A DNA stretch of 64,000 bases, taken from the IMG/VR virus record IMGVR_UViG_3300037418_000840, one strand, 5' to 3'. The translations under genes and the position numbers were made by a program. Position 1 is the stretch's first letter; every line of letters starts with the position of its first letter. Below, one piece after another: positions 39,139 to 47,814 of the stretch. The stretch is from a virus (Duplodnaviria; Caudoviricetes). The notes below the pieces were generated by a model that was not told the DNA's origin, made no database searches, and worked only from the letters and a program-made list of their open reading frames with translations.

Positions 39139-39231
39139 TCATGAACTACTTAGATCAACATCATCCGGTGTTCATGCCGCGCGTTCAGGCAGTTGGACCT
39201 CCGTCCAACGGCGTGCGGCGGAGCACCGACT

Positions 39232-39534
39232 ATGGAACGCTTCAATCGTGCAGTTCGTCGTCATCATGTAGCACGTCTTAAGCACAAGCGTCGCAACTAT
39301 TGGGGGTGGGACCGTAGGCAGAGCACCCCGTTTGATCAAGTCCCACAAGCACCTGAGCCGATGCCGGTCGCACTTCTCGGCAAGATCGTGGCCACGCCTC
39401 AAATGTGCTCGTGTCTCGGTTGCGGAAATCAACGTCACAACACGGCTGGCTGGACACCGACGGTGCAAGAGCGCCGCTGGCTTGACCAGTATCGTGAACA
39501 ACTTGAAGAGGTAGAAGAAGATGCGAAATCTTGA
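39232..39534 (+). CDS. small basic Cys-containing phage protein
   Basis: RRHH..RLKHKR..YWG...TP..CSC..CGN. Confidence 0.6.
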   Translation: MERFNRAVRRHHVARLKHKRRNYWGWDRRQSTPFDQVPQAPEPMPVALLGKIVATPQMCSCLGCGNQRHNTAGWTPTVQERRWLDQYREQLEEVEEDAKS

Positions 39535-40051
39535 CAAGACTCGGAAGTACGAAGTATTGGACGTGACTACCACTTCGTGGGTGCCTGCTCACTGGGAGCA
39601 GCTTGACGAAGGAGACGTGGTTCGCAGTTGCGACTCAACGACTTACGATGGTCCTATGACCGAAGAGTACGTAGTGGCGCACCATCCGGCTCTCATGGTC
39701 GATGTAGTGAAGGGCCAATGTCGTAGACCAACCACCAAGTACAAGACGGTAGCCGGCGACACATTGAAAGCGTTGGCCGCCCGTCACGACGTGTCAACAC
39801 ACTTCATTCGCTACACAAACTGGATGCGTGATGAAGATGATGCGTCGCTCACAGAAGGGATCGAGCTCGAGCTTCCTGTCCCGACTCCGCGTCCGAAGTC
39901 AGAGCTAGATCTCAAGGTTGAACGTCTGCGCACAACTGCTCAAGCTATGATCGATGCCTTCGCACCCTACGTTGATCCCTCTTGGCCGTCCACCATTGAG
40001 TGGCAGAACTTCAAAGCTGCGTTGGATGCCTTTGGTACCGATCATGCGTGA
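39521..40051 (+). CDS. LysM-domain protein
   Basis: YKTVAGDTLKALAARHDVS....N......L..G.EL.LP. Confidence 0.7.
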   Translation: MRNLDKTRKYEVLDVTTTSWVPAHWEQLDEGDVVRSCDSTTYDGPMTEEYVVAHHPALMVDVVKGQCRRPTTKYKTVAGDTLKALAARHDVSTHFIRYTNWMRDEDDASLTEGIELELPVPTPRPKSELDLKVERLRTTAQAMIDAFAPYVDPSWPSTIEWQNFKAALDAFGTDHA

Positions 40052-40129
40052 GACTCGGTGATCGAATGTTGGTCCTCGTGTCTGAGAAGGCCCCAATTGT
40101 ATGAGGCAGCAGTAAATAGGTGAGCCAGT

Positions 40130-40207
40130 GCCCCGTTAGCTCTTAATTGGCAGAGCAGCGGATTTGTAATCCGAGGGTTGGGAGTTCGAGTCTCTCACGG
40201 GGCACCA
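40130..40207 (+). tRNA. tRNA-Thr(UGU)
   Basis: cloverleaf, loop TTTGTAA, ends ACCA. Confidence 0.92.
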
Positions 40208-40224
40208 TTCATCTAGAGGACATC

Positions 40225-40560
40225 ATGGCCAAGGTCAGCGTCAAAGGCACGTTTCACAAACAGGTCGAGGTCACACTCCCCGAATCGGAACTAGTCGATC
40301 ACGTGAAGGCCATCGTACGGCGACATCATAACATTCGTGAGGGCGATTTCCTTCGCGGAAACACGGTAGTCTACGATGATCCCGATCACCGACATGGTTC
40401 GATCCGAGAACTAGAACGTGGTCCAGCGTCTGAACTCCAGCTTCTCGGATTCCAGATCCTGGACTATCTTGGAAAGTTGAATCTCGTTCTCACGTCGGAA
40501 GAAAACCGGTCGATCATGGACTACGTACCGGGCCTACGCCGCCCCCAGTCCCCAATTTAA
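40225..40560 (+). CDS. hypothetical protein
   Basis: GAGGA RBS. Confidence 0.6.
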   Translation: MAKVSVKGTFHKQVEVTLPESELVDHVKAIVRRHHNIREGDFLRGNTVVYDDPDHRHGSIRELERGPASELQLLGFQILDYLGKLNLVLTSEENRSIMDYVPGLRRPQSPI

Positions 40561-40600
40561 CGTTCCTGTCGTTGCAGTAAATAGCACGGTAAGTCACGAA

Positions 40601-40676
40601 GCGAGCATACGTCAGTTGGTTAGACCACCGTCCTTCCAAGTCGGGAACCCGAGTTCGAATCTCGGTGCTCGCTCCA
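40601..40676 (+). tRNA. tRNA-Gly(UCC)
   Basis: loop CTTCCAA, ends TCCA. Confidence 0.9.
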
Positions 40677-40695
40677 TCCTTTCCGGGAGCTTTAA

Positions 40696-40950
40696 ATGCC
40701 CATCTTGGGATCGACTCCGTGTTGCGACAATCATCTGTGTGTCTGGCTTGAGAACGAGAACGAAGTACTCGGTAAGTGGTACAAACACCAGTGCGAACAC
40801 TGTGGAACTTGGATCTTCACGCTTCTGTCGAATCTGAGTCCGGTGTCGTACACTGAGGAAGCGTTCAAGGCTGAATACGAAATCGATGAAGCAACGAAGC
40901 AGATCAAGAAGCGCGAATCATCCGAAGGACAAGTCACAAGCGTGCCGTAA
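40696..40950 (+). CDS. small Zn-finger-like protein
   Basis: CC...CEHC. Confidence 0.55.
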   Translation: MPILGSTPCCDNHLCVWLENENEVLGKWYKHQCEHCGTWIFTLLSNLSPVSYTEEAFKAEYEIDEATKQIKKRESSEGQVTSVP

Positions 40951-40966
40951 ATACGGTAAGCACAGC

Positions 40967-41041
40967 GCGGGCGTAGTTCAGTGGTAGAATTCTTGCTTGC
41001 CAAGCAAGAGGTCACGGGTTCGACCCCCGTCGCCCGCTCCA
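40967..41041 (+). tRNA. tRNA-Gly(GCC)
   Basis: loop TTGCCAA, ends TCCA. Confidence 0.93.
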
Positions 41042-41120
41042 AGTTTCACGAACGTTCGTTCTGTCGTTTCGACTTGTAAGGTCCCCGTCTGAATTGACGA
41101 ACGTTCCCTTTGTCTTCTGT

Positions 41121-41196
41121 TCCGCTTAACGCACAACGGTGTGCGGCCGGACTGTTAATCCGTGTGAGTCAGGTTCGATTCCTGAAGGCGGAGCCA
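41121..41196 (+). tRNA. tRNA-Asn(GUU)
   Basis: loop CTGTTAA, ends GCCA; A at position 8. Confidence 0.88.
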
Positions 41197-41222
41197 CCAA
41201 TTCCATCGTCAACGAGAACAAG

Positions 41223-41507
41223 ATGAAACTCCTCCCACTGTATGACCGAGTCCTTGTCAAGCCCCTCGACAAGAAAACCGAATCGGGTATCGTGATTGCC
41301 GGTTCGTCTGACCGAAACGATCAAGGCGAAGTCGTTGCCGTTGGTCCGGGTCCGATCCTCAACGACGGGACACAGAAGCCTCTGGCTGTCCAGGTCGGCG
41401 ACACCGTGATGTTCGTCCCTGGAACCGGTCATCCAGTGAAGATCGACGGCGAAGACATGCGTGTCTTCCCCGAGTTCGAACTCGTTGGCATCCTCCGCGA
41501 GGACTAG
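41223..41507 (+). CDS. groES: co-chaperonin GroES
   Basis: LLPLYDRVLVK...TESGIVI...GEVVAVGPG...VQVGDTV. Confidence 0.93.
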   Translation: MKLLPLYDRVLVKPLDKKTESGIVIAGSSDRNDQGEVVAVGPGPILNDGTQKPLAVQVGDTVMFVPGTGHPVKIDGEDMRVFPEFELVGILRED

Positions 41508-41509
41508 AC

Positions 41510-41947
41510 ATGAGCGGACGCCCGGTCAAGATTCTTCACCTAATGGTGGGTTCGGACAATTGGAAGCCGACACACGAGGAGTTGATTCAAGTAATTGAAT
41601 GCTTCGAATCAGCGTGCGAAGGCGGGAAGAAGTCGTTGTCTGCCGACGCAGCGGCCAAAGAAACAATGGTCGCAGTGGCAACGAATCACGAAGTGAAATC
41701 GGAAGTCCTTTCCATAACGGAAGACGATCCGATTTATGTTCTCGCCAACTTTGAATCACTTCGCGAGACAATTGCCCGTCGACTCCTCAACGAATTCTTG
41801 ATCGACTCGGCAACGCATCAACCGTTACCGCTCGATGCCTCGAAGGACACGGTGAATGGCTTCCATCTTTGCCTCAGCAATTTGAAGAAGCGAATTGAAG
41901 AACTCCTCGCAGAGGAGACGAAGGTTAGCGACAACAGACAGGCTTAA
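41510..41947 (+). CDS. hypothetical protein
   Basis: packed after groES. Confidence 0.6.
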   Translation: MSGRPVKILHLMVGSDNWKPTHEELIQVIECFESACEGGKKSLSADAAAKETMVAVATNHEVKSEVLSITEDDPIYVLANFESLRETIARRLLNEFLIDSATHQPLPLDASKDTVNGFHLCLSNLKKRIEELLAEETKVSDNRQA

Positions 41948-42018
41948 CCAGATACCGAAATTTCTGGTCTGTCCTGGGTCGTCAAAACCGGGAACCGCGT
42001 CTAGACGCGACCCGGCCT

Positions 42019-42095
42019 CGGAGCGTAGCGCAGCCCGGTAGCGCATCTGATTTGGGATCAGAGGGTCGCAGGTTCGAATCCTGTCGCTCCGACCA
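42019..42095 (+). tRNA. tRNA-Pro(UGG)
   Basis: loop TTTGGGA, ends ACCA. Confidence 0.93.
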
Positions 42096-42109
42096 GTTTT
42101 GTTTCACTT

Positions 42110-42271
42110 GTCCAGGATGCCAGAGTGGTTTAATGGTAGCTGAGTGGCCGAGTGGTGTGCGAGTTCCTGAAAGGAGCCGTAGTTCTAGACTGCGAGCCTT
42201 TAAACGGGGACGGCGGTGTCTCAGGCTGCCAGTCAAACACCCACGTAGGTTCGAATCCTACCCTGGACGCC
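42110..42271 (+). ncRNA. oversized tRNA-like RNA (about 160 nt)
   Basis: GTCCAGG/CCTGGAC acceptor, D arm and T arm enclose 107 nt; ends GCCT, no CCA. Confidence 0.7.
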
Positions 42272-42508
42272 TTATGAACGACGATTTGGTATTTGGATAA
42301 AGGGCACAAACTTGAATGCCGTGTGCGGCGAGAAGTGTGGTCCTCCAGCCTAGAATCGTCGTCCATAAGGCTTGACTTCTTAGGTGTGCGGGTTCGAGTC
42401 CCGATCGCTGGCCGAGACTATGGTAGACACAGCGGGCGGTAGCCACTCCGTCCGTGGAGCGCGCGGCCGGTGGGCCGTCCCTAAAAGACGGAACACCTAA
42501 GAGGTTAA
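42269..42508 (+). ncRNA. two long-stem RNA domains, the second with a T-arm-first tRNA-like core
   Basis: 17-bp and 16-bp closing helices, back to back. Confidence 0.6.
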
Positions 42509-42509
42509 G

Positions 42510-42716
42510 ATGAACAGTCCAAGTGCAGAGCAGGTTAGACTCTCACGAGTCCGAGCAGGTCTCACTCAGAAGCAAGCTGCTTCAGTTGTCTACGTCGGCG
42601 AACGTATGTGGCAGCGGTATGAAGCTGGGACATATGAAATGCATCCAGGACTGTGGGAACTGTTTCGTTACAAGGTCTTCCACGTTAGACCAGACCCAAT
42701 CACGGCTGGAGACTAG
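42510..42716 (+). CDS. XRE-type HTH protein
   Basis: RLSRVRAGLTQKQAASVVYVGERMWQRYEAG. Confidence 0.75.
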   Translation: MNSPSAEQVRLSRVRAGLTQKQAASVVYVGERMWQRYEAGTYEMHPGLWELFRYKVFHVRPDPITAGD

Positions 42717-42717
42717 C

Positions 42718-42972
42718 ATGACGACCATGAACGTACGAGACTTGATCTACGAGACTAAGGAATACGAAGGTCCTCTCAACCTTCCAGGAAAATCCATTGA
42801 ATGCCCCGAATGCAAGATTTTCTACGAGGCTAGTAAATGGAGTGCATGGGATTGCCCATGCGATTCATGCGGATCGCATCCAATCTTACTGTGTCCTGAG
42901 CGCCATACATTTGATCCGTATGGTGGAGATGACTTAGACTTGCAGGTCAAAGACGATGGCGTTGATCAGTAA
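42718..42972 (+). CDS. Cys-rich Zn-binding protein
   Basis: CPEC, CDSC, CP..H. Confidence 0.55.
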   Translation: MTTMNVRDLIYETKEYEGPLNLPGKSIECPECKIFYEASKWSAWDCPCDSCGSHPILLCPERHTFDPYGGDDLDLQVKDDGVDQ

Positions 42973-43138
42973 TCGAGAATTCTTCGATCCGGAATTCTAC
43001 CGGTTCATGCAGCAAGATTTCGAGGACATACGACGCAGACGTAAGCAACTGAAAGGACGACCCGATTCTGAACAGATGGCCGTCCTTGAATGTGAGCGTC
43101 AGTTCGAAGCCTTCTACAAGAAGTTCCTCGATTTGTAG
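42956..43138 (+). CDS. hypothetical protein
   Basis: packed ORF. Confidence 0.5.
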   Translation: MALISNREFFDPEFYRFMQQDFEDIRRRRKQLKGRPDSEQMAVLECERQFEAFYKKFLDL

Positions 43139-43142
43139 ATTT

Positions 43143-43230
43143 GGAAATGTGGCTGAGTGGGTTAAGGCAGCGGCGTGCTAAGCCGTCGAGTCGCGAGGCT
43201 CCGTTGGTTCGAATCCAACCATTTCCGCCA
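43143..43230 (+). tRNA. tRNA-Ser(GCU)
   Basis: long V arm, loop GTGCTAA, ends GCCA. Confidence 0.9.
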
Positions 43231-43327
43231 AGTAGTTCGTCTCTGAGGCGTTGGGTCAGCACCAACCGGCTCTCTCGTGGATACGAGGGGGCTGTGGTCT
43301 AGCGGTAAGGGCGCAGGGACGAACGCT
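43231..43327 (+). ncRNA. circularly permuted tRNA mimic (YrlA-like topology)
   Basis: order: closing stem, T-like arm, loop-closed acceptor-like stem, D arm, closing stem. Confidence 0.7.
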
Positions 43328-43333
43328 CGTTGA

Positions 43334-43421
43334 GGAAGCGTGGCTGAGTGGGTTAAGGCAGCGGTCTTGAAAACCGTCGTCGGGAAACCGGCCGTGAGTT
43401 CGAATCTCACCGCTTCCGCCA
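43334..43421 (+). tRNA. tRNA-Ser(UGA)
   Basis: loop CTTGAAA, long V arm, ends GCCA. Confidence 0.93.
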
Positions 43422-43492
43422 TTGTCGCAGTCTTCGTGTCACGCGTGGATAACAGGCATCCTGTGCTTGCCAAGTCGGACACGGAAATTCAC

Positions 43493-43560
43493 GGACCACT
43501 AACTCAGTGGTAGAGCGCCTCGTTAGAGGTTGGTCACGGGTTCGATTCCCGTGTGGTCCG
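43493..43560 (+). ncRNA. tRNA-like RNA with 4-nt anticodon loop, no CCA
   Basis: canonical D and T arms; GCCTC-GTTA-GAGGT. Confidence 0.7.
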
Positions 43561-43603
43561 TGTCACCGATTCAAGATGGTGTAGTAAATACTAAGGTAAC
43601 GTC

Positions 43604-43689
43604 GGACGTGTAGTGTAAGTGGTCAAAACCAGTGGACTGTAAATCCGCCGCCTCGTGCTTCGTAGGTTCGAATCCTACCGCGTCCACCA
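43604..43689 (+). tRNA. tRNA-Tyr(GUA)
   Basis: loop CTGTAAA, ends ACCA. Confidence 0.9.
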
Positions 43690-43718
43690 CTTCCTTAGAC
43701 TAGTTAGAAATCTTAGAT

Positions 43719-43792
43719 GCGGCCGTATCTCAATGGTAGAGACCCGGATTGTGATTCCGGTTACGTGAGTTCGATTCTCACCGGTCGCCCCA
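43719..43792 (+). tRNA. tRNA-His(GUG)
   Basis: loop TTGTGAT, C73-CCA; T rather than G at -1. Confidence 0.9.
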
Positions 43793-43827
43793 TAGGCCAC
43801 GAAGGCGGTCGCATCTAAGATTTCTGT

Positions 43828-43904
43828 AGCGGGATAGAGCAGCTAGGTAGCTCGTCGGGCTCATAATCCGAAGGTCGGAGGTTCAAATCCTTCTCCCGCA
43901 ACCA
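43828..43904 (+). tRNA. tRNA-fMet(CAU)
   Basis: 1:72 mismatch, loop CTCATAA, initiator-like D arm. Confidence 0.88.
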
Positions 43905-43913
43905 CCGTGTTGT

Positions 43914-44037
43914 GATCGCACTAAGGTCGTAGGAATGGACTAATCATCCGGACCCCAATTTCCATGGCCGCGCAGTAACCTCGTTACTGAGCCGTCTGGT
44001 GGTGTAGACCTGTCGGGAACGTGTTCCCGACGCGATC
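43914..44037 (+). ncRNA. unassigned multibranch structured RNA
   Basis: GATCGC/GCGATC closing stem plus several perfect hairpins. Confidence 0.4.
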
Positions 44038-44066
44038 AGCCTTTAGCTGTAGATTGTGAGGTCTTC

Positions 44067-44258
44067 ATGGACGCTCAACAGTACAAAAGCGCTATAGACG
44101 CGCTCCAGGACGGACCTCAATTGGTGCCTCGTACAGTAATCTACGACGGAGTTCTTTACGAACGTCGTCCTACGATAAGTGTGTGCTGGACCCCGAATGA
44201 TGGTTGGTCTGTCAAAGAGTACGACAAGATCGAGACTCAAAGTTTGAAGGCGTCATAG
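44067..44258 (+). CDS. hypothetical protein
   Basis: GAGG RBS; stop overlaps tRNA-Asp 5' end. Confidence 0.5.
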   Translation: MDAQQYKSAIDALQDGPQLVPRTVIYDGVLYERRPTISVCWTPNDGWSVKEYDKIETQSLKAS

Positions 44259-44325
44259 AACAATTGGTTAGTTCACCGGCCTGTCACGCCGGAGGTTACG
44301 GGTTCGAGTCCCGTTGACGTCGCCA
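44249..44325 (+). tRNA. tRNA-Asp(GUC)
   Basis: loop CTGTCAC, ends GCCA. Confidence 0.93.
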
Positions 44326-44384
44326 GTTAAACGGCGCGCGAATGGACATGCCAGTCCATGGTTTGAAACTTCGCTCGGCGTTTC

Positions 44385-44472
44385 GGGTGAGTAGTTCAGT
44401 GGTTAGAACACGGGCGACGCCTTCTCCGGTAGAAATCGCCTGAGGTCGTAGGTTCGAATCCTATCTCACCCA
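44385..44472 (+). ncRNA. tRNA-like RNA with elongated anticodon arm, no CCA
   Basis: GGGTGAG/CTCACCC acceptor; 7-bp stem around an 18-nt insert. Confidence 0.7.
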
Positions 44473-44563
44473 TCTTGTTTCAATGGGACAGCATTCTGAT
44501 TGGTCAGCCATCGGCGTCTGTGTTGACGCAACGTGCGGACACAAGAGGAGTGCGGTCCCGCCC

Positions 44564-44641
44564 GGGACCGTAGCTCAACGGATTTAGAGTAGTGGCCTAC
44601 GAAGCCATTGGTTGGGGGTTCGAATCCCTCCGGTCCCACCA
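44564..44641 (+). tRNA. tRNA-Arg(ACG)
   Basis: loop CTACGAA, ends ACCA. Confidence 0.92.
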
Positions 44642-44653
44642 TTCATGCAGTAC

Positions 44654-44730
44654 AGTGGGGTAGCTCAGACGGTTAGAGCGTTCGCTTGATAAGCGAGAGG
44701 TCGGAGGTTCGACTCCTCTCCTCACTACCA
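44654..44730 (+). tRNA. tRNA-Ile(GAU)
   Basis: loop TTGATAA, ends ACCA. Confidence 0.92.
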
Positions 44731-44738
44731 AGAAGTCC

Positions 44739-44814
44739 GGACAGGTAACTCAGTTGGTAGAGTGCTAGACTGAAAATCTAGTGGTCGCTGGTTCGATTCC
44801 AGTCCTGTCCACCA
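44739..44814 (+). tRNA. tRNA-Phe(GAA)
   Basis: loop CTGAAAA, ends ACCA. Confidence 0.93.
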
Positions 44815-44853
44815 AGTTGTTTCAGTACCGTGTAGTAAATAGGTTGTGTCTGT

Positions 44854-44932
44854 TGGGGGTTAGCCAAGTCCGGTCCAAGGCAGTTGGTTTTGATCCAACC
44901 ATTCACAGGTTCGAATCCTGTACCCCCTGCCA
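44854..44932 (+). tRNA. tRNA-Gln(UUG)
   Basis: loop TTTTGAT, ends GCCA. Confidence 0.88.
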
Positions 44933-44943
44933 CTCACTCCTGT

Positions 44944-45018
44944 GTGTGATTCGTCTAGCGGTTAGGACACTGCCCTTTCACGGCGGTAACACGAGTTCGA
45001 ATCTCGTATCGCACGCCA
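44944..45018 (+). tRNA. tRNA-Glu(UUC)
   Basis: loop CTTTCAC, ends GCCA. Confidence 0.92.
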
Positions 45019-45042
45019 TTCATTGATTCATCGTTTCATGCA

Positions 45043-45118
45043 GGGGCTTTAGTTCAGCTGGTAGAACAGCGGTCTCCAAAGCCGCGTGTCGGGAGTTCGA
45101 GTCTCTCAGGCCCCGCCA
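45043..45118 (+). tRNA. tRNA-Trp(CCA)
   Basis: loop CTCCAAA, ends GCCA. Confidence 0.92.
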
Positions 45119-45128
45119 CCGTTTTTAT

Positions 45129-45191
45129 AGGGCGTCCCAGTCGTAGTAGTGTCGAACCCCCGTCGGCGCTGCTCGGGGACGCCCTCTTTTA
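45129..45191 (+). terminator. long hairpin with U-tract ending the tRNA run
   Basis: AGGGCGTCCC/GGGACGCCCT followed by CTTTT. Confidence 0.55.
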
Positions 45192-45209
45192 TACCCATAG
45201 AGGTTCCAA

Positions 45210-45524
45210 ATGTCCGCCCAAGACGTGAACGTGCGTGAAGTGCCCGGCAACATCTCGATCCCTGACCTGAGTGATTATCATGGAACAGTCGCTGAACTGG
45301 AGCTCAGGGTAAATGCGCTAGCTCACGTATATGGTGGCGACTCAATCATCTCGTTCGACGCCGGACACAACAACATCGAAGCAGTGCTCGTAACTCGGGC
45401 CAGTATCGACGCTCACACGAAGGCCGTTCAAACCAAGGCCGAACGTCGCTCGTCCAAGAGGCGCGAGAAGCTGCAACGGCGCATCGCCGAACTTCAACAG
45501 GAACTGGAAGACCTCCATGACTGA
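45210..45524 (+). CDS. hypothetical protein
   Basis: GAGG RBS. Confidence 0.6.
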   Translation: MSAQDVNVREVPGNISIPDLSDYHGTVAELELRVNALAHVYGGDSIISFDAGHNNIEAVLVTRASIDAHTKAVQTKAERRSSKRREKLQRRIAELQQELEDLHD

Positions 45525-45717
45525 TGAAGTCTTGGTGTTAGAGGCGGCACTAAAGGCTCTGACCCGTAGATTCGACGAATTCGTGGGTCAGTGCATGGAC
45601 GATGCGGGAAAGCCGCGTGCGCCGTCGCCGAAGGCACTGGCCCAGGCTCGTGCCTGCCTTCCGCCTGAAACCACAAAGAACGGATACGCGTCTAAGTTCA
45701 AACCGGCGGCGATGTGA
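45517..45717 (+). CDS. hypothetical protein
   Basis: stop overlaps tRNA-Cys 5' end. Confidence 0.55.
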   Translation: MTDEVLVLEAALKALTRRFDEFVGQCMDDAGKPRAPSPKALAQARACLPPETTKNGYASKFKPAAM

Positions 45718-45784
45718 CTGAGTGGTCTAAGGTCCGGGTCTGCAAAACCTTGGTTCGTGGGTTCGAATCCCACCATCGCCTCCA
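45708..45784 (+). tRNA. tRNA-Cys(GCA)
   Basis: loop CTGCAAA, ends TCCA. Confidence 0.9.
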
Positions 45785-45792
45785 TACGTTGT

Positions 45793-45868
45793 GGGCCGTT
45801 AGCTCATTGGTCAAGAGCCGTGGACTCATAATCCACTGGTGACGGTTCGATTCCGTCACGGCCCACCA
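45793..45868 (+). tRNA. tRNA(CAU), probably Ile2 (lysidine type)
   Basis: loop CTCATAA; GGGCC acceptor with C4-G69 and C5-G68. Confidence 0.85.
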
Positions 45869-45885
45869 TTCATTAAGGATCTAGC

Positions 45886-46104
45886 ATGTCTAACAACACG
45901 TTGCAAAGATCGCAATCAGCAATCAAGACACTGAGCGAAACCGTACAGCGTGCTTATGCTCACGCTAGGTCACTGGGCTACACAGGATCATCGCTTGAGT
46001 ACGCGATGCTGATCCTACCGGAGGACACGCTTGTTACGGACAACACTGGATACTCGGGCACGCTGCGAGACACTCCTTCGATTAGTGAACTGTTGAACAT
46101 CTAG
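45886..46104 (+). CDS. hypothetical protein
   Basis: AAGGA RBS. Confidence 0.5.
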   Translation: MSNNTLQRSQSAIKTLSETVQRAYAHARSLGYTGSSLEYAMLILPEDTLVTDNTGYSGTLRDTPSISELLNI

Positions 46105-46241
46105 TTTTGAGCAGCACCAAGTCCTGCACGAGCGCAGGCGATTGACAGCGGTCAACGGTGAAGCCCGCGCGTTGCGAAGTCACCGGATACACAAAGGAGG
46201 CTATCATGCGTACACATTAGGTGATCTAATGGAGGACCAGC

Positions 46242-46415
46242 ATGAAAGCAAAACGTTTCGCTCATCGAGTTCCCAACCTCGGTCCCGGTGGTTGGCGCTG
46301 TCCCTGCTGTGGCCCATCGCCACGTCATCGTCGTAAGACGCGTCAGCAGCAGCGGCGTATCTTCAGCCGATTGATCGATAAGATCGAACGCCTGGAGGCC
46401 AGCGAGGAACTCTGA
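46242..46415 (+). CDS. 57-aa basic Cys-motif protein (below ORF-track cutoff)
   Basis: GGAGG RBS; MKAKRFAHRVPNLGPGGWRCPCCG... Confidence 0.6.
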   Translation: MKAKRFAHRVPNLGPGGWRCPCCGPSPRHRRKTRQQQRRIFSRLIDKIERLEASEEL

Positions 46416-46442
46416 TCGAGTGAACCAGACAAGGAGTCCTAA

Positions 46443-46601
46443 GTGTCGACCAAGCGTGATCGTCTTTTGTCAGGTCTGTTCTTTGGCCTGTTGACTGCTG
46501 TTGGTCTTGCCCTCGTAGTCTTCCTTTCGATGGTCAATATCCTTCGTTGGGAAGATTGTCGCGCGCACTACAGCTTCAGCTACTGCTTGTTCATGCGTTA
46601 G
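46443..46601 (+). CDS. 52-aa membrane protein (below ORF-track cutoff)
   Basis: AAGGAG RBS, GTG start, one TM helix. Confidence 0.55.
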   Translation: MSTKRDRLLSGLFFGLLTAVGLALVVFLSMVNILRWEDCRAHYSFSYCLFMR

Positions 46602-46980
46602 GACCCGATCGATATTGGGCACGGGACTGTGTGTTACCCTACTTGGCCGTCGCAATGCTGCCCGTGGCGCGACGAGAAGTGCCGGTTCTTTAAATGATCG
46701 GAAGTTAGAATGTTCTAGTATCCGCCTCGCCTCGTCGAGCGCGGCGGCGTCGCCCTTCGGGTTCGTCGCCGCCGCGCCACAGCCGCTAGTCTCGCGTAGT
46801 GCGTCGTCGACGCGCTCAGTCACAACGACAGCGGCATCCAGGCATTTCGGCAGCGGCCGACCCGGCGGACCTAGCGTCTAGCCTCCTGCGCGGACCCCGC
46901 CGTCGCAGGGGAGTGGACGTTATCTAGTTGCATCAATCATTAGGTGTATAGACGTATAGACAACCAAGACGGGTACCATC

Positions 46981-47814
46981 ATGGCACGACTCCCACGGCT
47001 CTACATTCCTGGTCAGGCACAGTACGTCATCCTGCAAACGATAGACGAACGTCCCGCATTCGTGAACGATTCCGACTACGAATTCTTCCTCGAATGTGTT
47101 CGAGACGCTGTGCCGGTGGCAGACATAGCAATTCATGCGTATGCTCTTCTGCCAAACGCCGTTCATATGATGGTCACACCTTCGACTGAGACGTGTCTGC
47201 CGCTATTCATGCAGACTGTAGGTCGTCGTTACGTGGCGCGTTTCAATCGCGAACACGGTCGGAGAGGCACCATCTGGGCAGGTCGTTATCGTGCGACGGC
47301 CATCGAGGGATCTTCGTGGGGTATCTTCGCCTATCAGTACATCGACAAGCTAGTGCCTCGTTCCGAGGCCACAGCCTTGAAGTCGACCCTTGGTCTTCAC
47401 ATAGGGATCGAAGGATCAACGTTCGTAGTTCATCGTCCAGAATATTGGGCGCTTGGAAATACGCCGTTCGATCGTCAACACGTATATCGCCTTATGTGCG
47501 ATCAGGAACTCGATCCGACTCGCATCGAACTGCTGATCGATGCGGCTACACGCGGCTGGGCTCTTGGTAGTCCTGAGTATCTAGCCTGGGCCGCCACGGT
47601 CGCCAATCGTCGAATCGGCAAGATGAAGCGCGGTCGCCCACGCAAAGATGGAACTCCGCGACAAGTTGACGTTCGTACAGTAGCGAAATCCAACGCTCCG
47701 GCTGTGTCAACGGTTAATCCGTCAACAACAGAGCAAGCACCCCGCGTTTTGAGCGTTCCAACTGTGTGGCCCACTTTCCCTTCTCTCCATGGACAATCAA
47801 ATGACGATCAGTAA
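46981..47814 (+). CDS. RAYT/Y1-type transposase homologue with degenerate HUH motif
   Basis: MARLPRL, HAY.L.PNAVH, MQTVGRRYV..FN, G..W.GRY, YWALGNTPF, RGRPRK. Confidence 0.8.
   Translation: MARLPRLYIPGQAQYVILQTIDERPAFVNDSDYEFFLECVRDAVPVADIAIHAYALLPNAVHMMVTPSTETCLPLFMQTVGRRYVARFNREHGRRGTIWAGRYRATAIEGSSWGIFAYQYIDKLVPRSEATALKSTLGLHIGIEGSTFVVHRPEYWALGNTPFDRQHVYRLMCDQELDPTRIELLIDAATRGWALGSPEYLAWAATVANRRIGKMKRGRPRKDGTPRQVDVRTVAKSNAPAVSTVNPSTTEQAPRVLSVPTVWPTFPSLHGQSNDDQ

Follow-up and report, generated by a model that had tools for sequence, protein, structure and literature searches.

Bacterial YrlA RNAs carry the parts of a tRNA in rotated order: the T arm comes first, a loop-closed acceptor stem and the D arm follow, and the RNA ends lie where a tRNA has its anticodon arm. 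Their hallmarks are the sequence GNCGAAN0-1G near the 5' end, near-invariant T and D stem-loops with the closed acceptor between them, and a gene for Ro60 at most 4 kb away on the same strand (PMC4201824; bioRxiv 10.1101/312249). The GNCGAAN0-1G sequence is the presumed Ro60 site, and Y RNAs can share transcripts with tRNAs (PMC4201824). YrlA RNAs are also found in some phages and beside tRNA genes. In this study, we analyzed the spacer between the genes for tRNA-Ser(GCU) and tRNA-Ser(UGA) in DNA of a virus of the Caudoviricetes (Duplodnaviria; IMG/VR record IMGVR_UViG_3300037418_000840). The whole stretch of 64,000 nucleotides (nt) is referred to as the window. An earlier note on this DNA had described the spacer as a circularly permuted tRNA mimic of YrlA topology. 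Our analysis showed that the permuted tRNA-like body is real, and the resemblance in topology stands, whereas membership in the YrlA family failed the tests applied. The window belongs to a soil jumbo phage. Its genes include those for gyrase and topoisomerase subunits, for helicases, and for a DNA polymerase of family A, which shares 58% identity with the polymerases of Ralstonia phage phiRSL1 and the Burkholderia phages BcepSauron and BcepSaruman and 51–71% with those of five IMG/VR contigs.

The element occupies positions 43231–43333 and fills the complete 103-base spacer, running exactly from the encoded CCA of the upstream tRNA-Ser to position +1 of the downstream one (Table 1). All helices and motifs listed in the earlier note were found in the sequence, and their order is the published YrlA order (PMC4201824; bioRxiv 10.1101/312249). 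Three helices were redrawn. The 11-base-pair (bp) closing helix stands as it was drawn, and it is extended by AGU/GCU over a bulged A, flush with the upstream CCA; its 5' strand takes the place of the 3' strand of an anticodon stem. The acceptor-like stem is present, in the form of a 12-bp hairpin with a GGAU tetraloop, which stacks without a gap on the T-like stem and leaves neither a free 3' end nor a CCA. Similarly, the D arm is confirmed, with GUCU/GGGC as its preferable stem and AGCGGUAA as its 8-nt loop.

In tRNA numbering, the permuted cloverleaf fills positions U8, A14, G15, G18, G19, A21, G26, A44, G45, G46, C48, G53, U55, C56, and C61. Five of these (A14, G15, G18, G19, and A21) lie in the D-like loop. 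The T-like arm keeps the G53–C61 pair, U55, and C56, and its loop is non-canonical, as the earlier note had remarked, with G54 and G58 replacing U54 and A58. The T-like stem has the same sequence as the T stem of tRNA-Ser(GCU), its upstream neighbor. Two other drawings were rejected. A tRNA in normal order, with GUUCGUC/GACGAAC as acceptor, would have the T-like arm first and the D-like arm last, and GUUGG-GUCAGCA-CCAAC as an anticodon arm (anticodon CAG) would have atypical residues at positions 32 (G) and 37 (C) in a surrounding order that does not fit.

The permuted body cannot be ascribed to chance, because three results point the same way. The minimum free energy (MFE) of the spacer has a z-score of −4.09 against 200 shuffles. 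A strict descriptor (T arm with G53–C61 and U55 C56, closed stem of at least 7 bp, U8, D arm with A14 and GG) matched once in both strands of the 64 kb and never in 20 shuffled windows, and it matched twice within 5 kb of phiRSL1; a relaxed descriptor gave 0.2 matches per shuffled window. Finally, the body was de-permuted in silico: 7 bp were taken for the acceptor and 5 bp from the closing helix, and an anticodon loop and CCA were added. ARAGORN reported a 75-nt tRNA in 50 of 50 trials with this construct, and in 0 of 50 when the D and T segments were shuffled. A tRNA call was obtained only for this de-permuted form: neither ARAGORN nor Rfam called a canonical tRNA, with its standard-order cloverleaf, anticodon loop, and free acceptor end, within 43231–43333.

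Among the YrlA hallmarks, only the topology was found. Element and YrlA (RF02553; PMC4201824; 10.1101/312249) share the permuted order, a long terminal stem at the place of the anticodon arm, the lack of a free CCA, and the nucleotides for tertiary contacts, save for the G/G pair at 54–58. The YrlA covariance model, which the earlier note had proposed as a check, did not bear out the family assignment: a permissive cmscan of 43100–43500 returned no RF02553 match at E ≤ 10 (gathering score 69 bits), and the same model does match the phiRSL1 (32 bits) and L020 (28 bits) elements described below. The 5' strand, AGUAGUUCGUCUCUG, contains no GNCGAAN0-1G match. The sole match in the element is GACGAACG at 43318–43325, on the 3' strand, and it is at chance level, because GNCGAANG is matched 85 times across the window. 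GACGAACG itself also occurs in the spacer at 41096, and its 10 occurrences against 5.7 expected are not significant. The consensus stems GCGGG/CCCGC (T) and GCUC/GAGC (D) are missing, the element having GUUGG/CCAAC and GUCU/GGGC instead. Further differences from YrlA are the T loop with G54/G58, the lack of a YUAY variable arm, and the position as a spacer inside a tRNA array.

A linked Ro60 gene was not found either. Within 4 kb of the element (39231–47333), no open reading frame (ORF) is of Ro60 size, the largest having 277 amino acids. None of the six real ORFs of at least 400 amino acids in the window (gyrase, topoisomerase, helicases, polymerase, and one other) carries a TROVE domain. The TROVE model, which gave matches in control genomes, found nothing in BcepSauron, phiRSL1, BCSR5, and Motura, nor in five IMG/VR relatives, two of which are 97–100% complete. 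The suggestion of the earlier note that the RNA may be a Ro-independent variant agrees with these failed YrlA tests, as far as the sequences can tell.

The motif GYAGTAAATA occurs 10 times in the window versus 0.67 times expected. On the + strand it lies 21–27 nt upstream of tRNA-Thr, tRNA-Gly, tRNA-Tyr, and tRNA-Gln and 47 nt upstream of an ORF, and it also precedes tRNA-Ser(UGA) in the related loci L020 and L022; the motif probably represents a promoter element of the phage. No copy was found just upstream of tRNA-Ser(GCU) or of the element, which places the element inside a longer transcription unit, and no intrinsic terminator was found in the spacer. Contigs from three RNA-library runs of one root-metagenome study (42422–43419, 42408–43680, and 43097–43367) bridge both tRNA-Ser genes and the element. 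The bridging contigs include upstream ORFs and fit co-transcription of these ORFs, both tRNA-Ser genes, and the element. The contig word-depth in the bin 43212–43312 equals that of the flanking mRNA region, although contig depth is unsuited to ranking segments within a gene, and short RNAs with structure are captured only poorly.

A search of the relatives revealed two unannotated permuted tRNA-like elements upstream of the tRNAs of phiRSL1. One of them, here called RSL1-2 type RNA, has homologues in L020 and L022 (Table 1). In its RNAalifold consensus, a closing helix of 7 bp is followed by AAGAC, a T arm of canonical form, a long closed acceptor, UA, the D arm, and G, and 8 of the 36 pairs show compensatory changes among the three sequences. 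These changes show that this clade maintains permuted tRNA-shaped RNAs. Members of this family have the permuted cloverleaf as their MFE structure. The YrlA model scores them at 28–32 bits, below threshold and mostly across the T/acceptor/D core; their T and D stems are YrlA-like, and two of the three members, those of L020 and L022, carry GUCGAAAG on the 5' strand.

The RSL1-2 RNAs, with their 7-bp closing helix and 5-nt variable region, and the element agree in architecture, in their location in or next to a tRNA cluster, and in the D loop AGCGGUA. They differ in the canonical T loop and the YrlA-like stems of the former. A family model built from the three members (R2) found no match at 43231–43333 at E ≤ 5 and no further members in nine relatives or the window. 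A covariance model of the element alone (R1) gave marginal matches only to RSL1-2 type RNAs (15.9–16.9 bits, E 0.014–0.028). By sequence, the two are best regarded as analogues rather than demonstrated homologues. R2 also scores ordinary junctions between adjacent tRNAs, at which the T arm and acceptor 3' strand of one tRNA lead into the acceptor 5' strand and D arm of its neighbor. Such matches call for caution in pattern searches, and plausibly suggest an origin via tandem duplication with loss of the outer halves.

Further tRNA-like features were observed in these loci. The second phiRSL1 element (L005 4017–4096, − strand) has a T arm, a closed acceptor, a D arm of Leu/Tyr type, and an anticodon-like hairpin, and at L020 5725–5803 a T arm is followed by the acceptor 3' strand and ACCA. 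Both give weak matches to beta_tmRNA (RF01850; 16–25 bits). Furthermore, one phiRSL1 tRNA (L005 3302–3425, − strand, equal to AB366653.2 188801–188924; Rfam tRNA 41 bits), whose anticodon region is enlarged by an insertion of 62 nt, is absent from the annotated features of that stretch.

Our tentative reading, which we hold to be quite possible, is that the spacer is a maintained, non-decoding, permuted tRNA-shaped RNA that would be released by maturation of its neighbors and act through its tRNA body, independently of Ro60. An RNA of about 97–103 nt would be transcribed on the + strand together with the neighboring genes and the two tRNA-Ser genes. RNase P generally cuts at the 5' end of a tRNA, here at the end of the unpaired tail. 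Trimming of the 3' end of tRNA-Ser(GCU) by tRNA processing and the RNase P cut at the 5' end of tRNA-Ser(UGA) would thus release the RNA, and the terminal helix of 11–14 bp would protect it. The RNA would then expose the body of a tRNA: acceptor and T helices in a coaxial stack, the D/T elbow, and the core triples. Such a body may occupy a factor that reads tRNA shape, be it a host defense nuclease targeting tRNAs or a tRNA-processing or tRNA-modification enzyme. With its closed acceptor and no CCA, the RNA cannot be charged, and without an anticodon loop it cannot decode. A decoy for such a factor would be the most economical role. This reading draws on the core nucleotides in their permuted places, the descriptor and ARAGORN results, the long helices free of mismatches, the exact fit to the spacer, the bridging contigs, the conserved architecture of the RSL1-2 type RNAs, and the further tRNA-like elements without CCA in the array.

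A different role could lie in the loop GUCAGCA, which instead could contact the anticodons of the flanking tRNA-Ser pair. The loop (43255–43261) includes UCA and AGC, the Ser codons read by tRNA-Ser(UGA) and tRNA-Ser(GCU), respectively, and 3–4 bp would be possible between each and the matching anticodon loop. This is a post hoc observation, with a chance estimate, itself rough, of a few percent.

Several observations weigh against a maintained tRNA-shaped RNA. The proposed decoy role is modeled, by analogy only, on published counter-defense by phage tRNAs. The G/G in place of U/A at 54–58, although the sole deviation from the tRNA core, falls in the T loop. The RNA-library contigs show neither ends nor strand and may come from contaminating DNA. 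The earlier note had named another preferred structure and a lack of conservation as outcomes that would speak against its reading. Folding indeed favors a rod, and the spacer lacks conservation outside this species; the features that the note described are nevertheless present.

Regarding the fold, the closing helix and the acceptor-like hairpin form with pair probabilities above 0.99 in the RNAfold ensemble. The MFE structure is a rod of −49.4 kcal/mol, in which the T-like and D-like stems are missing, and the best cloverleaf-type fold is 4 kcal/mol worse (−45.4 kcal/mol). When 19 genuine tRNAs of the array were folded as a control, their lowest T-stem probability was 0.089, compared with 0.003 for the T-like stem; the element is therefore thermodynamically less tRNA-like than every tRNA of the array. 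This raises the explanation that the spacer is a structured rod, which insulates the folding of the tRNAs or offers a double-strand processing site, with the tRNA-like nucleotides being vestigial. It would also suit four other spacers of the array, likewise stable hairpins that are closed by long helices. Inside the rod, however, bulges break the pairing into segments of 1–4 bp, and the full set of tRNA core nucleotides, the uniqueness of the descriptor match, and the ARAGORN result are unexpected for a plain hairpin. Moreover, MFE folding misses the T arm in 7 of the 19 genuine tRNAs too. We consider a mere rod rather unlikely, and an L-shaped fold would fit the core nucleotides.

Regarding conservation, the element is unchanged in three other assemblies of the same species, which are 99.3–99.5% identical over the region; at about 99% identity such invariance is uninformative, and no covariation is available. 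Near-identical DNA is found in rhizosphere, root, and soil metagenome runs (sampled-word share up to 0.97). The small ORF just upstream (42956–43138) has 24 homologues with 63–80% identity, and twelve of their contexts were fetched. In the nearest, L020 (80%) and L022 and L023 (78%), the ORF is followed by tRNA-Met, tRNA-Cys, a 185-nt spacer carrying the promoter-like motif, tRNA-Ser(UGA), and tRNA-Tyr; tRNA-Ser(GCU) and the element are both missing at this syntenic site. In others, protein genes follow the ORF. R1 found no copy in BcepSauron, phiRSL1, the five IMG/VR relatives, and 15 further loci, and local alignment of the element to the syntenic spacers of L020 and L022 was no better than alignment to shuffles. 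In Rfam, a gathering scan of the window returned tRNAs only and a permissive scan of the spacer nothing. Searches of the region with megablast and blastn against 50,697 phage records yielded only similarity to tRNA-Ser and one 19-nt chance match. An exact 29-mer was not found in IMG/VR, and neither of two neighboring proteins has relatives there. A loop-only IUPAC pattern with free stems had 0 matches in Joint Genome Institute metagenome contigs, a collection without this species, so that this result is uninformative. On these searches, the element is confined to this one phage species. As neither tRNA-Ser(GCU) nor the element is present in the nearest relatives, both are a recent acquisition of the lineage.

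This distribution would also be expected of a functionless rearrangement relic, in which, following the tandem duplication behind both tRNA-Ser genes, the 3' half of one tRNA copy became joined to the 5' half of its neighbor. The degenerate T loop and the T stem shared with the adjacent tRNA-Ser(GCU) fit such an origin, and the scoring of tRNA junctions by R2 shows a way in which such a gene order can come about. Bare remnants of tRNA halves would nevertheless have helices of 7 and 5 bp, whereas those of the element, with 12 and 11–14 bp, are free of mismatches and unlikely to have been kept under decay. The stem is intact, whereas 5 of the 7 loop positions differ. Strains from several studies have also kept the element, a weak point given their identity of about 99%. 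A relic without function is, in our view, unlikely.

A true YrlA-type Y RNA, which would bind a phage- or host-encoded Ro60/Rsr and tether it to an effector, would account for the order of T arm, closed acceptor, and D arm and for GACGAACG, which fits GNCGAAN0-1G; transcription together with tRNAs has a precedent (PMC4201824). With no RF02553 match at E ≤ 10, the motif on the wrong strand amid 85 others, the conserved stems missing, and no Ro60-sized ORF within 4 kb or TROVE domain in the window ORFs of at least 400 amino acids or nine related records, it is very improbable. Hardly credible is a two-piece tRNA-like RNA, in which RNase P cuts the acceptor hairpin, CCA is added, and the closing helix joins the halves: such processing occurs in M. 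smegmatis YrlA (PMC4201824) and the 7+5 bp acceptor/T stack is present, but Chen et al. (PMC4201824) saw cleavage only in YrlA with a 7-bp acceptor stem, and here the helix continues 5 bp past the seventh pair to a mere tetraloop, with no single-stranded leader and no discriminator-CCA, although the genuine tRNAs of the array encode CCA.

The element was also compared with other permuted or tRNA-linked RNAs. Permuted tRNA genes are reportedly present in Cyanidioschyzon merolae and some archaea. As in the element, the 3' half precedes the 5' half, and an intervening sequence separates the two facing acceptor strands. In those genes, circularization at a bulge-helix-bulge restores the anticodon loop and yields a functional tRNA with CCA; to our knowledge, bacteria lack the splicing endonuclease. 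A functional permuted tRNA gene was ruled out here, as the termini form a helix of 11–14 bp without a loop, flush with the neighboring tRNAs, and the acceptor, an unbroken 12-bp hairpin, has no CCA. Two-piece transfer-messenger RNA (tmRNA; beta_tmRNA, RF01850) likewise has a T arm, acceptor 3' strand, intervening loop, and acceptor 5' strand. This assignment was rejected as well, since ACCA, a tag reading frame, and pseudoknots are lacking, ARAGORN found no tmRNA in the window, and no model of the tmRNA clan matched the spacer. Species 1 and 2 RNAs of the tRNA cluster of phage T4 are small, stable RNAs other than tRNAs that are released by the tRNA pathway. Their likeness to the element would lie in the place in a phage tRNA cluster and the route of release, and they are not known to be permuted cloverleaves.

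Table 1. Features of the spacer element and its surroundings. Positions refer to the window unless another record is given
Feature	Position	Strand	Basis or remark
tRNA-Ser(GCU), encoded CCA	43143–43230	+	ARAGORN; Rfam tRNA 54.6 bits; 3' end sets 5' end of element
Closing helix, 5' strand (AGU, bulged A, 11 nt)	43231–43245	+	43235–43245/43314–43324 with pair probabilities of 0.99–1.0; AGU/GCU extension in MFE structure
Variable-region analogue, 4 nt, AGGC (A44, G45, G46, C48)	43246–43249	+	Sequence in tRNA numbering; ARAGORN variable loop after de-permutation
T-like arm: stem GUUGG/CCAAC, loop GUCAGCA	43250–43266	+	Sequence; descriptor match
Acceptor-like hairpin, 12 bp (43267–43278/43283–43294), GGAU tetraloop	43267–43294	+	Pair probabilities 0.99–1.0
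U8-G9 connector	43295–43296	+	Sequence; U8 required by descriptor
D-like arm: stem GUCU/GGGC (4 bp, two G-U), 8-nt loop AGCGGUAA	43297–43312	+	Constrained fold; ARAGORN drawing of de-permuted body
G26 and closing helix, 3' strand	43313–43327	+	Contains GACGAACG at 43318–43325
Unpaired tail CGUUGA, 6 nt	43328–43333	+	MFE structure; ends at expected RNase P site of next tRNA
tRNA-Ser(UGA), encoded CCA	43334–43421	+	ARAGORN; Rfam tRNA 58.8 bits; 5' end sets 3' end of element
GYAGTAAATA sites	40109, 40574, 43581, 44832, 48180, 52675	+
GYAGTAAATA sites	12036, 15246, 17176, 23035	−
RSL1-2 type RNA, phiRSL1	AB366653.2 189268–189404 = L005 3769–3905	−	Descriptor; YrlA-model search
RSL1-2 type RNA homologues	L020 6029–6166; L022 11959–12099

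The tRNA array extends over 40130–45868 and contains 20 tRNAs called by ARAGORN, to which Infernal adds one tRNA-like element. All genuine tRNAs of the array encode CCA; the element at 43231–43333 does not. Two ORFs on the − strand (43005–43265 and 43162–43482) were judged spurious, as they overlap tRNA genes. Several other parts of the array deviate from ordinary tRNA genes. In a tRNA-like gene at 43493–43560 (Infernal 43 bits, no ARAGORN call), the acceptor, D, and T arms are normal, a loop of 4 nt takes the place of the anticodon loop, and CCA is missing. An 88-nt tRNA-like gene at 44385–44472 (ARAGORN Gly(gcc)) has an anticodon region of about 18 nt and, unlike the other array tRNAs, no encoded CCA. 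At 42110–42271, there is a tRNA-like element of roughly 160 nt with a canonical T arm (42245–42261). In the RNA library X10, a 132-nt contig covers 42141–42260 at a depth of 209, compared with 15 for the adjoining contig, and in X19, from a second study, a contig spans 42125–42268. The contrast in depth is only a hint that this RNA accumulates, contig depth being a poor measure.

Furthermore, a 17-bp closing helix at 42372–42508 surrounds a YrlA-like T arm (GCGGG-UUCGAGU-CCCGA), which is followed by UCGCUGGCCGAGA and a GGUAGA motif. This long-helix domain had no Rfam match at E ≤ 10, and a similar string, a T arm followed by TCGCTGGCCGAGATTTGGTAAG, was found at about 3040–3100 of L020. The array spacers 41042–41120, 43422–43492, 44326–44384, and 44473–44563 form stable hairpins of −18.6 to −39.4 kcal/mol with closing helices of 5–11 bp and without tRNA-like features. 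The spacer between tRNA-Met and tRNA-Asp varies: the strain contig L006 lacks about 139 nt at 43916–44053, and one RNA-library contig skips 143 nt (43911–44053), joining directly after 43910. A deletion variant of this spacer thus circulates among strains.

YrlA-type RNAs have so far been defined by their partnership with Ro60. The same rotated tRNA body in phages in which no Ro60 was detected would mean that this module has a use of its own or that it arose more than once. The RSL1-2 type RNA of phiRSL1-like phages is a previously unannotated RNA. It is conceivable, if doubtful, that permuted tRNA-shaped RNAs acting without Ro60 form a class in the tRNA arrays of RSL1-like jumbo phages of soil betaproteobacteria. 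This class would comprise the conserved RSL1-2 type and the lineage-specific Ser-Ser spacer, and its members would be excised by tRNA-processing enzymes and serve as decoys that can be neither cleaved nor charged, directed at host factors that read tRNA shape, such as defense nucleases targeting tRNAs. Phage tRNA arrays are discussed as an answer to host defenses that cleave tRNAs, and the several look-alikes without CCA in this array are thus candidate decoys that can be tested. The conserved RSL1-2 type RNA is carried by phiRSL1, which has been isolated and whose Ralstonia host can be cultured, and this brings the question within reach of experiments. Should the element be only a relic, it would still document how permuted tRNA-like genes arise from tandem tRNA genes.

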